A stretch of DNA of 64,000 bases from a virus: positions 1 to 64,000 of the IMG/VR virus record IMGVR_UViG_3300003177_000010. One strand, given 5' to 3'. Positions 7,569 to 43,626 of this stretch are shown piece after piece. Made by a program: the position numbers and the translations under genes. Numbering within the stretch: the stretch's first letter is position 1; every line of letters starts with the position of its first letter. Below the pieces are notes generated by a model. That model worked only from the letters and a program-made list of their open reading frames with translations. It did not search any database and was not told where the DNA came from.

Positions 7569-8933
7569 TTAAATAGCAGTTCTACATCTTACCTCTGAAA
7601 AACTAGTATCTCGTAATAGTTTACCGTTTAAATAAACAGGCTCTAGCAGGTCTACCCCTATTTCTTCTTTACGTTTAGTAGAAAATCCATGAGTTAGAGT
7701 ATACTGTAGTGCTAATCTACCTTTTTTAGACTTTTTGTTACCGTGTAGGGGTTCTTTAAAAACGTCATGCCAGATACCAGAAGTATCGCAACGTGCGGAG
7801 GCTTTCATAGCATACTCTAAGTCATCACGCTCTACTTTTTGTAGCAGTCCTCCGCCCATACCAAAGGCAAAGTTCTCTACGGATAATCCGGCATCAATAA
7901 TGTTATACAAAAGCATGGGTAATGATTCATCAGTAATACCGTCTCCTTGTATCACCCTAATATAATCAGGTAGTACTTTATATCCTTTAGAGTTTGTGGT
8001 GTAACCAAACTCTTCCATTAGTATTTTTGCGACCTCAATAGGCATATAAGTAGGGGACCCTGAATCAGGTCTAGCAATTACACGACCCTTTGATGCGATA
8101 ATCTTAGCTTTCAGTTCTTTACCTAGAATATTACGAGCAGCGTTATATACATCATAAGAATCAATAACTACTGCAAGAAGCTTACCTTCTCCACTAAATA
8201 AGTTAATCATATTTTCATAGGCATCTACTTCATTATTCCAAGAAGTCATAGTAGAGTGCTCAGAGGCAGGAATAGAAGTACCGGGGTTAACTGCGTTATA
8301 GTACTTCATAGCTCCGTAAATACCTTCAATAGTATCTGTTCCAACGAAGTTGGTTAGGTGGGCCATACCTCCTAACATAGCACTTTCAGGAGAGGAGACT
8401 CCTCGCGAACCAAAATCATGCAACATGAAAGGTATCAATTCATCTACAGTAGTGTCTGACGACTCATTAATTGCATTTACTAAGTATTTCTTCATTTCTC
8501 TAGACTTAGTAGCTACCGTAGAAGGGTACCACACGCCTCTAAGAATAGCGGTCTCAATATACGACGTTAACCAGTAGAGTCTGGGGTCTGTATTAGTTAC
8601 CCTTACTTGAATATTAGATACAGGCATTACAGTACCTTCTGGTACAGCTTCGATACTCAGAGGTAAGTACCCATCATACTCATTAACAATAATTTCCCAA
8701 CCTTCGCGATTAAAATAACCAATGTAAGGCATTAGTACTTTTTCTGCAAAGTCAATATCCTCCATAGTAATAGGAGTAAGCAAATACTCTTTAATAAATG
8801 CTTGCAGTCCGAAGAACGTAGATTCTTCCGCGCCGCCCCTAGCTTCGATATATGAAGTAAGATATTCTGTATCAGAAGGGTACTGTTCCCATTGAGTAAC
8901 TTTGTATCCGTCAGTTCGTAAAATATTAATCAT
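7569..8933 (-). CDS. nadV: Nicotinamide phosphoribosyltransferase (NAMPT)
   Basis: TDGYK, HDFGSRG, IPASEHS, RPDSG, VIQGDG, FGMGGGLLQ. Confidence 0.95.
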   Translation of the reverse strand: MINILRTDGYKVTQWEQYPSDTEYLTSYIEARGGAEESTFFGLQAFIKEYLLTPITMEDIDFAEKVLMPYIGYFNREGWEIIVNEYDGYLPLSIEAVPEGTVMPVSNIQVRVTNTDPRLYWLTSYIETAILRGVWYPSTVATKSREMKKYLVNAINESSDTTVDELIPFMLHDFGSRGVSSPESAMLGGMAHLTNFVGTDTIEGIYGAMKYYNAVNPGTSIPASEHSTMTSWNNEVDAYENMINLFSGEGKLLAVVIDSYDVYNAARNILGKELKAKIIASKGRVIARPDSGSPTYMPIEVAKILMEEFGYTTNSKGYKVLPDYIRVIQGDGITDESLPMLLYNIIDAGLSVENFAFGMGGGLLQKVERDDLEYAMKASARCDTSGIWHDVFKEPLHGNKKSKKGRLALQYTLTHGFSTKRKEEIGVDLLEPVYLNGKLLRDTSFSEVRCRTAI

Positions 8934-24211: not shown

Positions 24212-25570
24212 TTACTTTTTGTGCTTCTGCAGCCATGGTTTATATATTTCTCCTGCCCTCATAGAACCTAGGGGCTCTATTTCATCTACTATATGTGCTA
24301 ACTTATAGTCTTTAATTTGTTTACAAACTTCTTTTGCACTCTTGTATGCTCCAGGTAGCTCTGATATATCTGCAGTTCCTGTATAAAAACGACAGTCAAT
24401 GTCCTTAGGTACTAACTCTTCATAAGTCTTACTAATATTATCTTTTTTGGACTGCGTTCTAGAAATATTTCTGCCAGCACCATGCGGAGCAAAACCATAA
24501 GTGTTATCTATATGATGCGTAACTATCAATATAGGCTCCCCCATATTTAAAGGTATAATACGCCTATCTTCCGCCCACTTGTTAAATGTAGGTGTAGCTC
24601 CTTTAGCATGGTGGAAAATATCACCATCTTTAAACACAAAGTTATGCTCGTTCCAAAAGCGGTCTGTGATACTCGGATTATTTAGCTCATGCAATACTTC
24701 TGAATGTACTACAAAGTGGTTAAGTTTAGTCCAAGCTCTTATAATCTGTAGAGCTTCCCAATAATTCTTGCCTTCCTCAGTCTCATAAGGAATCCATGCG
24801 TTCTGTTTTAAGGTATTAGAGGAATATTTAATCCTAAATTCTTCTGCAGCTTTCATTCCTTTTTTATACAATAAGGCTCCAGGTTTTCTAGACCCGTGAT
24901 GAGTAACTAAAGTGATTCTACCTGTGCTTTTAGATCTACCTACAAAGAAAAAGTGGTTACCATCTCCTTGAGTACCTAGATAATCATACATAGCTTGTAT
25001 AATAGTAGTATCATTTAAAAATTTATTATTTCGTGCTCTAGCTATTATTTTATTATTCATAGGTATCTTAATAGCTCTACCTCCTGGGCCAAAGTGCGAG
25101 CGCTTTTGAACTGCGTTCAATATAGTAGCAACATCTATTTCATCTTTAATCTCAGTTAAGTATAAAGAGCAACAAATATTAGAACTATGCATACCTGGGT
25201 GAATAGCATTTTTTGCACTAATTACACCCCCTACTGGTATAGTCCCTACAGGGCCTGAAGGGCAAGCATCAGGCATTACAGAAGCTTTAACTACAGTAGG
25301 AGTAAGAGTAGCTACCTTCATAGTCTCTACTACCGCTTTATAATTAGCTTTTTCATATTTTGTAGTACCTTTATCAAGATTTACTTTAAAAAATGAAGAA
25401 GTTTTCAATGGAATTGAGCGGTCCTTAGTAGCTTCTTTATATCTCCAAGCTAGGCCTTCCATTAAGTCAGTAGTCCTACCTGGTTTATTAGCATAACTTA
25501 ATAATTCCGAGAACCAAGGACCTGGTTTAAAGCCCCAATCAATTAGGTCTTTTCCTGTTATTTTTTCCAA
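24212..25570 (-). CDS. rtcB: RtcB-family RNA ligase
   Basis: MPDAC, IPVGG, GTQGDGNHF, HHGSR, HN, HAKGAT, HGAGR, ELPGAYK. Confidence 0.93.
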   Translation of the reverse strand: MEKITGKDLIDWGFKPGPWFSELLSYANKPGRTTDLMEGLAWRYKEATKDRSIPLKTSSFFKVNLDKGTTKYEKANYKAVVETMKVATLTPTVVKASVMPDACPSGPVGTIPVGGVISAKNAIHPGMHSSNICCSLYLTEIKDEIDVATILNAVQKRSHFGPGGRAIKIPMNNKIIARARNNKFLNDTTIIQAMYDYLGTQGDGNHFFFVGRSKSTGRITLVTHHGSRKPGALLYKKGMKAAEEFRIKYSSNTLKQNAWIPYETEEGKNYWEALQIIRAWTKLNHFVVHSEVLHELNNPSITDRFWNEHNFVFKDGDIFHHAKGATPTFNKWAEDRRIIPLNMGEPILIVTHHIDNTYGFAPHGAGRNISRTQSKKDNISKTYEELVPKDIDCRFYTGTADISELPGAYKSAKEVCKQIKDYKLAHIVDEIEPLGSMRAGEIYKPWLQKHKK

Positions 25571-31405: not shown

Positions 31406-32162
31406 TTGAGAACCAAGATTTTACCTTTGACATAAATGTTACCTTTTTATTCTTGGCCAGATCTGTGTAAGAAATATTCTTAATTGTTTCAACCTCAATA
31501 AGAGATTCTGAAACAATTCGATTAATGTTATCAATATCTACGCTAATTTTCTTGCCTGGTTTTTCGATGCCAATTTCTCGCATTCTATCAAGCATTTTTG
31601 TAAATGTCAAATCACAGAATTCATCTTCCCAATCTGTGATAAAATACATTCGATCGTGTTTTAAATTAATTTTCTCGTTCAAAAACATACCAAAAACGAT
31701 TGGATCTCTGTTACGGGCGACAAAACTTTTCTGTTCAGGAGTATTGACTTCTTCATCCGTAAAATCTGTATAGATAACAACTAAAAGATCAAAGATTTCA
31801 AGATTACGAGCTTTTTCAATATCTTCTACGTTCATATCAGGAATAACACGAGGAAAGTTTTCAAGCTCAATAATTTTTACAGAATTTTTTGGTGTAATTG
31901 AATCAATAAGTCTAACAACATCTTGGCGATATACAAAATCTTCATATCCTAGAGAGTTAAGAATCATTTCTTTTTCAAGAATTTGCCACATATAAGCTGA
32001 TTTATGGGAGAGATTTTTCTGACCAAGACGTTCCGCCTTTTGAATTTCTTTACCAAGAAATGCCATATTATCTTCAAGCTTTTTATATTCCATTTTGTTG
32101 ATTTTAGTTTTCAACTCAGCGAAATAATCCTTTGGCTCTGTAATATTATCATCTTCTATCAT
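31395..32162 (-). CDS. Conserved hypothetical phage protein
   Basis: VKIIELENFPR.IP, RDPIVFG, YFI.DWEDEFCDLT; AGGAG SD. Confidence 0.75.
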   Translation of the reverse strand: MIEDDNITEPKDYFAELKTKINKMEYKKLEDNMAFLGKEIQKAERLGQKNLSHKSAYMWQILEKEMILNSLGYEDFVYRQDVVRLIDSITPKNSVKIIELENFPRVIPDMNVEDIEKARNLEIFDLLVVIYTDFTDEEVNTPEQKSFVARNRDPIVFGMFLNEKINLKHDRMYFITDWEDEFCDLTFTKMLDRMREIGIEKPGKKISVDIDNINRIVSESLIEVETIKNISYTDLAKNKKVTFMSKVKSWFSSDA

Positions 32163-32202
32163 GTTATCTCTCCTGTTAACTATAGAATAATAATTATAAT
32201 AA

Positions 32203-32535
32203 AGTAGACCCGTTTGGTAATACGGTGGAGTCTATACCGCAAAAAGGATTAGGCAACTAGTGCATAATCTTTAGGTGCTATGTTATCGTTTGCATTTACG
32301 AGTTTTGAGCCGATGTGGTGTGCTCATCCAGTAATCTCCACTTTATCCCCAATGTCATTCGATCCTATTTCGACCCCATTATAAGTATATCAGTTTCAGG
32401 GTTCGAACCCTCTTACGGCCTAAATAAACTGTTATAATCACCAATGGCCACTGTACACTCAGTGTCAATATACTTATGGTGGAGTCGCTGGGTACTGCCC
32501 CCAGGTCATGTCCATTTTTGTATTGTTTCATCAAT
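32203..32535 (-). ncRNA. ssrA: Two-piece (circularly permuted) tmRNA; tag ANDNIAPKDYALVA*
   Basis: Acceptor piece ends CGACTCCACCA (32477); coding piece starts GGGGTCG (32377); G3:U70; GGCAGTA T-loop; tag frame 32293-32249; outer ends approximate. Confidence 0.93.
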
Positions 32536-32776
32536 TACTAGGTGTCTTTAAGGCGCATCCCATTCCTATTAATTTCGTCTTTATACTAAACCGGAGAACC
32601 GGCCTCAGAATAACTAACTCCGAATCTTCACCCTATGAAGGTGATGTAATTTCACATCTCTAACAATGTCAGTCATTAGATTAGTAGGTGGCACTAGTTA
32701 GATAGTATAGCTACCTACTAATTAAGTAAGAACAAGTGCAAAGGCACCTTCGTGGGCTAAGCCTAATAATTCTTAC

Positions 32777-33616: not shown

Positions 33617-33692
33617 TGGTTGCGGGAGTAGGACTCGAACCTACGACCTCTTGGTTATGAGCCAAGCTAGCTGCCGCTGCTAACATCCCGCA
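33617..33692 (-). tRNA. tRNA-fMet(CAU), initiator-like
   Basis: TGCGGGA/TCCCGCA-ACCA, CTCATAA loop. Confidence 0.85.
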
Positions 33693-37409: not shown

Positions 37410-37467
37410 TGTTTCTTCCTCTCTATAATTAAATATACATTATAAAAAAGAATTAAGCAACTATATT

Positions 37468-38049
37468 TTAAAAAGCACAGGCATATAAAAGATCTAAAGA
37501 TTCTTTTTCTTTTTGTACTGTTTCTATAGACTTAATGGGTATATTAAACTCATTATAACCAAGTTTAGCTACATCTATATCAAAAAATTTTAAGGCTTTT
37601 ACATAATCATTATATACCATCCCATTTACTAGGTCTACCTCAATGTGCTTAATATTATAGTTAGTATCTAATAAAGCACAAAGAGGTAAGTCATCAATTA
37701 TTAAAAATTTATCATCTTCTTCGGCATTATCCTCTATCCACCACAGTATTTCATGTGATCTTTTTGAGGATTTACTTTTAGGTGTTAATGCTACACGCGC
37801 ATAATCAAAACGTAGTCCACATTTATATAGTAAATCTTTTAGTTTTTTCTCTTCTAAAAACCAAGACCAGTTAGTAGAAAGTACAATTTTAGCATCTGCA
37901 TAATCAGCAATTAGATTATGTAAACGAACTGCAAAAGGGTCAAAAGTAGGTAAACCTTTTTTAGTTTTATGGAATTTATAGTTTTCTTGTAAAAAATTCA
38001 ATTTAGCAGGTAACAGAGGCCCGTCAATATCTACAAATATATAATTCAT
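37468..38049 (-). CDS. HAD phosphatase (RNA-repair Swiss-army-knife type)
   Basis: FVDIDG, IVLSTNW, R..EI..W, IIDD. Confidence 0.75.
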   Translation of the reverse strand: MNYIFVDIDGPLLPAKLNFLQENYKFHKTKKGLPTFDPFAVRLHNLIADYADAKIVLSTNWSWFLEEKKLKDLLYKCGLRFDYARVALTPKSKSSKRSHEILWWIEDNAEEDDKFLIIDDLPLCALLDTNYNIKHIEVDLVNGMVYNDYVKALKFFDIDVAKLGYNEFNIPIKSIETVQKEKESLDLLYACAF

Positions 38050-38050
38050 T

Positions 38051-38506
38051 TTAATTCCTCAAAAAAGTTAAAGCTTCAAGATAGTTATTATAAGACAGAC
38101 CGTCTATTAAGTCTGCTTTTATATTTTTAATGTTACTTTGTGGGAAATTCAGTAGTAAATCATCAATTACTAGAATTTTGTCTTCTGAGGTACAGTTAAC
38201 ATCTATCCACTGTTGTATTTCCTTAACTCTATTACCTACTTTATTAGTAACAGAGCTACTAGCGTAAGTAAAATTAAAGCCGCAATTATATAGTATATTT
38301 TTTATCTCATATTCAGAAAAGTAATTAGTCCAATTTGTTGCTAATATTATCTTAGCTTTTTATGCTAGTTTATTATAAGCAAAAACTGCAAAAGGGTCAA
38401 ATGTAGGTAAACCTTTTTTAGTCTTGCGATACTTATAATTGTTACCTAGCCTACTAAATTTAACAGGCAATAACGGGCCATCAATATCTACAAATACATA
38501 GTTCAT
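38051..38506 (-). pseudogene. Tandem paralog of the HAD gene with an in-frame TAA at codon 49
   Basis: MNYVFVDIDGPLLP...YNKLA*KAKIILATNW...VIDD. Confidence 0.8.
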
Positions 38507-40515: not shown

Positions 40516-40727
40516 CTATCAGCCGGAAATTCTTTTTACATGCAGCCGGATCTGCATATTATTTCTGTACTCTCGATAGAAATCAAACCTACGGTCTTCA
40601 CCTTATAAGAACAATGAGATGATACCTCGCTACAAAATAGTACCCTTGCTCCTTACCGTGGTGTACCGACTCTTTGGTGAGCACTCAGTAGCAATCTTTC
40701 GAAGGCGGGCATTTCTACTGATAATTT

Positions 40728-40993: not shown

Positions 40994-41076
40994 TGGAGCG
41001 GGCGACGAGAATCGAACTCGCCATGGAATTAACCGCTAGCTTGGAAGGCTAGTTCTACACCTTGTAGATCACCCGC
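40994..41076 (-). tRNA. tRNA-Gly(UCC) with long variable region
   Basis: CTAGC-CTTCCAA-GCTAG, G1C2G3, U73, CCA. Confidence 0.85.
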
Positions 41077-41184
41077 AAAAAGTCGATTTTGAAACAGAAC
41101 TATCGTAAACCGCATTTGTATACATTGTAAGCAGTGCATCATCACTGTAGGAACTACATCCCGCAACCTCTCCTGTATACACAT

Positions 41185-41215
41185 AAAAAAACCCTCACTA
41201 ATTTCTTAGGAGGGT
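41185..41215 (-). terminator. Intrinsic terminator (attenuator) upstream of tRNA block
   Basis: ACCCTC-CTAA-GAAA-TTAG-T-GAGGGT followed by a U-run. Confidence 0.85.
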
Positions 41216-41244
41216 GTAGACTAGTTAAAATAAGTATATAATAC

Positions 41245-41319
41245 TTATCCGCCATACCCTTCATAAGCCATAGGAAAATCCCATGCACATATATTTTCTT
41301 GTATATTAAATAGTCTCAT
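41245..41319 (-). CDS. Putative leader peptide MRLFNIQENICAWDFPMAYEGYGG
   Basis: 24 codons; GAGAG SD; lies between a promoter and a terminator. Confidence 0.7.
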   Translation of the reverse strand: MRLFNIQENICAWDFPMAYEGYGG

Positions 41320-41366
41320 TTTGTATTCTCTCTTTTAATCAGTTTACCTGATTTTCTTTATAATTA

Positions 41367-41395
41367 AATATAGCACAAAATTTAGCAATAGTCAA
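41367..41395 (-). promoter_or_regulatory. Sigma70-type promoter of leader/tRNA block
   Basis: TTGACT-17nt-TATATT. Confidence 0.75.
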
Positions 41396-41440
41396 CAACT
41401 TTTTTAATTTTTTATGTAAGGTGCTGAAGTGTTTCTTATA

Positions 41441-43326: not shown

Positions 43327-43626
43327 TATATCATCTTTATATTATTATACTTATAGCTATACAGTAATTTCAATCCATATATCTGAAGGATTAACTATTA
43401 CGTTATATTACCTGTGTGCAAGGTTCTACCTCTGGCCAACATCTTACCTGACTTATCCTTTAAAGACGCTATTCCGCCTTTCTATAATTATTTATAACAT
43501 TAAAATTAACCATTAGGCAAATGTTATTTTGATTTTTTAAGAGTTTACCCGTTATTAAATAGTTTTAACTCTAATACTACATACACTATAGTTATATATA
43601 GCATTAAAATTAGCCGTTAGGCAATA

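Follow-up and report, generated by a model that had tools for sequence, protein, structure and literature searches.

A candidate translation-coupled attenuator ahead of a tRNA block in an uncultured phage

The leader at 41395-41185 in the genome of an uncultured phage can be read as a translation-coupled transcription attenuator lying ahead of the first block of phage tRNA genes, and we put the chances of that reading at about even. Its parts are present in the geometry of such a switch, no other recognisable promoter precedes the tRNAs, and analogous switches occur in other phages.

An IMG/VR virus record of 112,794 bp (33% GC), rated complete, supplied the window analysed, which is its first 64 kb. 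Between about 53 kb and 1 kb the genes of the window are on the minus strand, and 20 tRNA genes together with a permuted, alpha-type tmRNA lie among the minus-strand genes from 41076 to 27794. An RtcB-type tRNA ligase, a nicotinamide phosphoribosyltransferase and dTDP-sugar genes also fall within the minus-strand gene stretch. The leader adjoins the gene for an AAA ATPase, and a 145-aa gene next to it is an orphan, having no homologue but itself among 5.8 billion proteins. Within the array, a 48-aa ORF at 38360-38506 (minus) repeats the N-terminus (MNY.FVDIDGPLLP...) of the adjoining downstream 193-aa ORF at 37468-38049 (minus) and, judged by that repeat, is probably a truncated duplicate of it. 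The positions of the main features are collected in Table 1.

Table 1. Features of the leader and its surroundings, numbered from the first nucleotide of the window.
Feature	Position	Strand	Remarks
Leader promoter TTGACT-17-TATATT, TG before -10, A-rich upstream	41395-41367	minus	recurring family
-35 element TTGACT	41395-41390	minus
-10 element TATATT	41372-41367	minus
Conserved TAATTATAAAG, directly after the -10	41366-41356	minus
5'-UTR hairpin AUCAG-GUAAA-CUGAU	41338-41352	minus	near inferred transcript start, ~41360
Weak AG-rich SD-like stretch	41327-41334	minus	7-8 nt before ATG
24-codon leader ORF MRLFNIQENICAWDFPMAYEGYGG + TAA	41245-41319	minus
Antiterminator 5' strand CUUAUGAAGGGU	41267-41256	minus	codons 18-22; resembles terminator 3' arm
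Inner AT hairpin ATAAGTAT-TAT-ATACTTAT (RNA AUAAGUAU-UAU-AUACUUAU)	41248-41230	minus	contains stop codon
Intrinsic terminator: 10-bp stem, one bulge, GAAA loop, T-run	41215-41185	minus	-12.2 kcal/mol
Spacer, terminator to first tRNA	41184-41077	minus	108 nt
First tRNA block: atypical Gly(UCC), Cys, Arg(ACG), Pro, Trp, Asn, Phe, Gln	41076-39439	minus	ARAGORN
AAA ATPase adjoining leader	42906-42046	minus
tmRNA, permuted, alpha-type	32158-32569
RtcB-type tRNA ligase	24212-25570	minus	strand of tRNA array; PHROG 1075, 3.8e-83
Nicotinamide phosphoribosyltransferase	7569-8933	minus	strand of tRNA array; PHROG 448, 5.9e-146

Promoter, leader ORF and first tRNA block

An earlier, sequence-only reading of this DNA had proposed a promoter, an SD with a 24-codon ORF, a hairpin over the stop codon, an intrinsic terminator and a first tRNA about 110 nt beyond it. 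All of these were found, the SD being weak, the terminator stem longer than had been written, and the first tRNA beginning at 41076, 108 nt beyond the T-run. The promoter is one of a family that occurs across the phage genome and has the consensus TTGCYT-17-TATATT-N4-TTATAAAG. Its other -10 elements start at 2384, 4791, 33716, 36365, 36536, 37437, 43496 and 43600 on the same strand, and -35 elements lie at 43624, 43520, 37460, 36559, 36388, 33739 and 2408 (minus). Because the TATATT-N4-TTATAAAG motif recurs across the genome, the leader promoter is not a chance match. Several family promoters directly precede genes with good SD sequences, or the tRNA-Met at 33692. The palindrome TTAAACGAAGTTTAA or a close variant precedes four of them (43624, 36559, 36388 and 33739), and its layout, TTAA-N7-TTAA, is like that of a CtrA box. 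The promoter at 41395 has no CtrA-like box; instead, its -35 matches the consensus and an A-rich stretch lies upstream. The CtrA-like promoter boxes, taken with the alpha-type permuted tmRNA, suggest an alphaproteobacterial host.

The SD-like stretch lacks a GG core, and its duplex with the anti-SD (-4.9 kcal/mol, against a median of -4.3 for the 69 long ORFs of the genome) is average for this phage. A run of 24 open codons is expected by chance about 15% of the time at 33% GC, as estimated from base composition, and the ORF alone is thus not above chance. The peptide does use 15 different amino acids, as had been counted, but that diversity is unremarkable (P=0.23). The idea that AGA, CTA and ATA serve as rare or slow codons was rejected, their frequencies in the codon usage of the phage being 20, 19 and 47 per thousand, ie they are common. 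There is no tandem run of regulatory codons in the leader, where each relevant codon occurs once or twice, and the 24-aa peptide, which is too short for protein searches, has no recognised homology, its tie to the analogues described below being a resemblance at the level of architecture.

The tRNAs expected downstream were called by ARAGORN as far as Gly, Cys, Arg, Pro, Trp, Asn, Phe and Gln are concerned, but the 'Leu-like', 'Trp-like' and Thr members of the earlier list were not. Of the eight called tRNAs, seven read codons in the leader; the exception is Arg(ACG), which does not read the AGA that the leader uses. In a post hoc test, a match of seven in eight had P=0.005 among random 23-codon peptides drawn from the codon usage of the 69 long ORFs and P=0.013 under a base-composition null, also post hoc, and it was driven by the rare Cys and Trp. 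The first tRNA of the block (40994-41076, minus) is itself atypical: it measures 83 nt, its anticodon is UCC (Gly), its 6-bp D-stem carries a loop of 3 nt, and its variable region is long. Among Rfam models it scores best against tRNA-Sec, with 41.7 bits, short of the gathering score of 47.

No sigma70-like promoter with a match of at least 9/12 to the consensus was found on the same strand in the spacer, and the one promoter-like site inside the first block, at 40586, is weak. As the first-block tRNAs have no sigma70-like promoter of their own that could be found, they would depend on read-through from the leader. Gating of the tRNA array as a whole, which had been claimed, was rejected: family promoters lie within the array (-35 elements at 37460, 36559, 36388 and 33739, the last directly before tRNA-Met), later blocks have their own, and therefore the leader cannot gate all of it. 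Control would reach at most the block from 41076 to 39439 and the ORFs behind it.

Terminator and alternative pairing

The terminator stem, ACCCTCCTAA-GAAA-TTAG(T)GAGGGT, occupies 41215-41191 and is followed by six further T at 41190-41185, giving seven T after the last G-C pair. A genome-wide scan for hairpins followed by a T-run found about 10 compact canonical terminators in the 112.8 kb, that of the leader among them. The minimum free energy fold of the full-length leader contains the terminator (P=0.92), and the hairpin over the stop codon is paired with a probability of 0.98-0.99 in all folds that have no ribosome at the stop. The spacer beyond is not unusually structured (z = +0.63). 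In the interval 41070-41400, Rfam leader, T-box and riboswitch models gave nothing near the gathering score, even at permissive settings.

The pairing of the last leader codons with the 5' arm of the terminator, proposed earlier as an antiterminator, exists, and forms part of a longer helix in which CUUAUGAAGGGU (41267-41256) pairs with ACCCUCCUAAG (41215-41205) and encloses the stop-codon hairpin. In RNA truncated ahead of the 3' arm, this helix is part of the minimum free energy structure. The complementarity is, however, no better than chance in this window. The duplex of the 5' arm with the upstream strand, at -9.3 to -10 kcal/mol, was equalled or bettered by 28% of dinucleotide shuffles in one set-up and 43% in another, and was matched by 12% of random genomic windows and by 64% of synonymous recodings of the last 14 codons. 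The C-rich arm of the terminator pairs readily with any Gly or Trp codons.

Folds in which a ribosome was simulated by forcing a 31-nt footprint to be unpaired gave the expected switch, the probability of the antiterminator being 0.6-0.95 without a ribosome or with one in codons 1-15, apart from a dip at codon 11. In the naked nascent RNA the probability of the antiterminator was 0.6-0.7. It rose above 0.9 with the ribosome on the AUG, on codons 2-7 or on codon 13, the core of the helix stood at about 0.9 with the ribosome at codon 15, and it was 0 with the ribosome anywhere from codon 16 to the stop. With the ribosome at Cys11 it fell to 0.3-0.45, where a weak local hairpin competes. The leader folds contained no clear anti-antiterminator (1:2 helix), and therefore untranslated leader RNA is predicted to read through.

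Analogous units in related phages

No close relative was found among GenBank phages by DNA and protein searches, the best ATPase match being 36.5% identical, and ATPase matches in the PLSDB plasmid collection reached about 31% at best. Many homologues of the ATPase, at 54-63% identity, are carried on long contigs (P0003, P0005, P0006, P0008, P0009, P0011, P0012 and P0032, at 55-63%, among them). A scan of genome contigs with P0006 gave relatives of 28-29% identity only. IMG/VR scans with the 145-aa neighbour, the ATPase of the window, the terminator sequence, the anticodon arm of the first tRNA and P0008 gave nothing useful, and an IMG/VR scan for the promoter-box pattern TTAAACGAAGTTTA-N-TTG gave 51 single matches; by blastn, none was similar to the window between 27 and 45 kb. 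Sequencing runs with the stretch came only from the probable source sample, and no RNA run was among them.

Analogous units were obtained by other routes. An alignment-based IMG/VR scan for phages with ATPases 35-40% identical to that of the window gave three that have tRNA arrays just downstream of the ATPase, among which L005 and L059 carry a leader-like unit. L072 was located through a shared RNA motif, and L074 is nearly identical to L005. In L005, L059 and L072 the order is a sigma70 promoter, a 5' hairpin, an ORF of 45-47 codons, a stop-codon hairpin, a strong terminator, about 230 nt of structured RNA and then tRNAs, which in L072 lie about 1 kb further on. L059 has a 5' hairpin comparable to that of the window leader, followed by UUAAAAGAGA ahead of the ATG. 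Ala-Phe-Ser codons near the end of each ORF are complementary to the 5' arm of the terminator: CCGCTTTCTC pairs with GAGAAAGCGG in L072, CCGCTTTC with GAAAGCGG in L059, and GCCTTCTCAG with CTGAGAAGGC in L005. In that same sequence of phages these antiterminators had shuffle p values of <0.0005, 0.001 and 0.006, and synonymous-recoding p values of 0.005, 0.008 and 0.04. RNA truncated ahead of the 3' arm folds with the outer helix and the inner hairpin in all three; with the 3' arm added, L059 forms the terminator and L072 and L005 give a mixed result.

Between L072 and L005 one position is altered on three strands, with Ala GCT becoming GCC, the 5' arm AAAGCGG becoming AAGGCGG and the 3' arm CCGCTTT becoming CGCCTT. 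This is what a three-strand switch predicts, as a single event. The change was read by eye in a codon-anchored comparison, MAFFT having failed to align the antiterminator strand of L005 with those of L072 and L059. The ORFs of the L072 group also keep their length and frame, through an in-frame 3-nt indel, and a C-terminal NYD..AF.G.GP motif; the peptide is thus conserved and may be a functional small protein. The family of 45-47-aa ORFs is tiny, with three representatives among 1.84 billion proteins.

The closest relative obtained is the metagenome locus L075, whose ATPase is about 58% identical to P0011, itself 60% identical to that of the window, and whose promoters belong to the family seen in the window. 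At the syntenic promoter that follows the ATPase, L075 lacks a leader. Between its tRNA-Ser and tRNA-Cys there is a unit comprising a 22-codon ORF (2229-2297), a hairpin over the stop and a terminator, GGCCCCTAAC-TGA-GTTAGGGGC. In the last codons GUAGGGGUUA pairs with the 5' arm (-12.8 kcal/mol, shuffle p=0.0125, synonymous-recoding p=0.09), and the truncated and full folds switch cleanly. The ORF has two Cys codons and is followed by tRNA-Cys.

All four analogues lie beside tRNA arrays and combine a short ORF (22-47 codons) with a stop-codon hairpin and a strong terminator, and their phages (L005/L074, L059, L072 and L075) share the neighbouring AAA ATPase with the phage of the window. The window leader, L075 and the L072 group show no significant sequence similarity to one another and are linked by architecture only: a tRNA array near the same ATPase, an inner hairpin that contains the stop codon, and an outer helix between the last codons and the terminator arm. 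The C-termini of the window leader, L075 and the L072-group ORFs share a loose [WY]D-x3-A[FY]-x-G-x-G likeness. A generic scan of all loci for a short ORF, a terminator and complementarity was not discriminating.

Several other features of these phages were observed. The ~230-nt structured RNA that separates terminator and tRNAs (L005:9508-9793, L059:9250-9476 and L072:3930-4166, minus) is conserved, with the motifs GTGCTGAAAYGCCCC, ACGGAACTC and GCCAGCCACG, and RNAalifold gave it 51 pairs, 20 of them with compensatory changes, from three sequences only. It matched no Rfam family, and nhmmer found no copy in the genome of the window phage; L075 has a loosely similar CCAGTCACGCGG stretch ahead of tRNA-Val. 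In the related phages, a tRNA with a CUA anticodon (called 'Pyl' by ARAGORN; L005:4807-4882, L007:1732-1808, L059:6404-6477 and L074:12840-12915) lies upstream of the ATPase at a distance of a few kb (1.5 kb in L059); it is possibly an amber suppressor. TAG is the stop codon of the small ORF in L059.

Proposed mechanism, competing readings and known systems

If the leader is an attenuator, the strong early promoter would start an RNA that carries the 24-codon ORF and ends at the terminator after about 176 nt. A ribosome at codon 16 or beyond, or at the stop, would mask codons 18-22 and melt the stop-codon hairpin; the C-rich 5' arm would then be free, the terminator would form, and the RNA would end near 41185. 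With the ribosome absent, late or stalled in codons 1-15, codons 18-22 would base-pair to the 5' arm around the stacked inner hairpin and block the terminator, allowing transcription to enter the eight tRNA genes and the ORFs behind them. Slow or failing decoding would in this way raise the output of phage tRNAs. Translation of the ORF, the kinetic competition and the nature of the sensed signal are matters that we infer, and depletion of tRNAs by anticodon nucleases, put forward as a trigger, is likewise something we only infer.

The architecture and the footprint folds fit a leader-peptide attenuator, but the lack of tandem codons and of a 1:2 helix does not; the antiterminator has the right geometry and chance-level complementarity. 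The attenuator is favoured because a promoter lies about 176 nt before the end of the terminator, the first tRNAs have no promoter that could be recognised, the footprint folds switch and there are analogues, one pair of them with a compensatory change. The match of leader codons to seven of the eight tRNAs and an SD of average strength also speak for it. It is weakened because the pairing in the window is ordinary, there is no sequence similarity to the analogues and L075 has no syntenic leader; because there is neither a run of regulatory codons nor a clear anti-antiterminator and the naked RNA favours read-through; and because a ribosome at Cys11 lowers the antiterminator, the codon match is post hoc and the peptide of the L072 group is conserved. 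That conservation also bears on two other explanations. The RNA of about 176 nt could be the product of a stand-alone early gene, as a small protein or a small RNA, with the tRNAs transcribed by leakage through the terminator or from an unrecognised phage-specific promoter. A transcript bounded by a strong promoter and a strong terminator would suit such a gene, as would the L072-group ORFs, whose length, frame and C-terminus survive the in-frame indel, and the window antiterminator that is not above chance. Against it, a gene should suffer from a helix that ties up the arm of its own terminator, but the analogues retain that helix, with a compensatory change; no promoter could be recognised before the first tRNAs, and the 24-aa peptide has no recognised homology. 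We consider a stand-alone gene unlikely. A real switch that answers to a signal other than general decoding speed, through a small-molecule-responsive arrest peptide or a protein or RNA binding the leader, would also be in keeping with the conserved C-terminus of the L072 group and its loose likeness in the window. The conserved codons are, however, those that form the RNA helices, and constraint on the RNA therefore suffices to explain them; with no Rfam family matched as well, a switch of that sort is very improbable.

The terminator could also be a constitutive partial one, acting as an insulator that ends the upstream ATPase operon and reduces, by a set proportion, the transcription that enters the tRNA block; the ORF and the pairing would then be due to chance. 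Twenty-four open codons are no rarity at this base composition (about 15%), the pairing has p values of 0.28-0.64, and the SD is weak and without a GG core. Against this, a strong family promoter about 176 nt upstream of the T-run would be wasteful, the layout of ORF, stop-codon hairpin and terminator is seen again in four other phage sequences, and the codon match has P=0.005. An insulator is, in our estimation, rather improbable. Extending the attenuator to a general claim, several phage lineages would place multivalent leader-ORF attenuators before tRNA blocks, and missing tRNAs, whether through codon-usage mismatch, host shut-off or host anticodon nucleases, would stall the ribosome and induce their replacements. 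That such an undescribed class of tRNA-pool sensors exists is tenable but doubtful.

Leader-peptide transcription attenuators are classically those of amino-acid operons (trpL, hisL, pheL and leuL), with thrL and ilvGMEDA as multivalent examples. Like them, the leader described here has a short promoter-proximal ORF followed by an intrinsic terminator, together with an alternative helix that has its 5' strand within the ribosome's reach, and like the multivalent thr and ilv leaders it samples several amino acids. It differs in that its candidate targets are tRNAs and not biosynthetic enzymes and, compared to trp/his-type leaders, in lacking tandem regulatory codons, a clear 1:2 helix and a match to an Rfam leader. 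In attenuators of the erm, cat, vmlR and bmrCD type, which precede resistance genes, ribosome stalling senses inhibition of translation. The proposed leader would resemble these as a generic sensor, in which a stall in a short upstream ORF remodels the RNA and induces genes that bring relief; they answer drug-bound ribosomes, often via specific arrest peptides, whereas the leader is phage-borne, has a proposed tRNA output and has no demonstrated arrest motif. T-box riboswitches bind uncharged tRNA directly and need no ORF. There too, as proposed for the leader, a choice between terminator and antiterminator reports on the tRNA pool and controls genes that supply translation, but the window leader has an ORF and no T-box model matched in 41070-41400.

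Phage tRNA arrays are usually regarded as constitutively expressed cargo for codon usage or counter-defence. Full-text literature searches gave no description of tRNA genes, whether of phages or not, controlled by leader-peptide attenuation, and the nearest case in print is the trn operon of Anabaena. That operon is a long tRNA array induced by translational stress (PMC8421152) and controlled by the RHH repressor TrcR (PMC10272220). Like the block proposed here, it consists of accessory tRNAs that are kept low and raised when translation is impaired; unlike it, the control is by a protein repressor at the promoter, and the array is cellular and lies on a megaplasmid, compared to a phage leader here. 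The terms 'attenuat', 'leader' and 'terminator' are absent from the 2021 Anabaena paper (PMC8421152).

If the attenuator is real, phages would gauge decoding capacity and make tRNAs on demand, and the classic trp/his logic would extend from the supply of amino acids to the supply of tRNAs. Ribosome stalling would then have a sensor that is compact and portable, and the leader would offer a testable link between phage tRNAs, the nearby RNA-repair genes (RtcB, tmRNA) and host defences that target tRNA.
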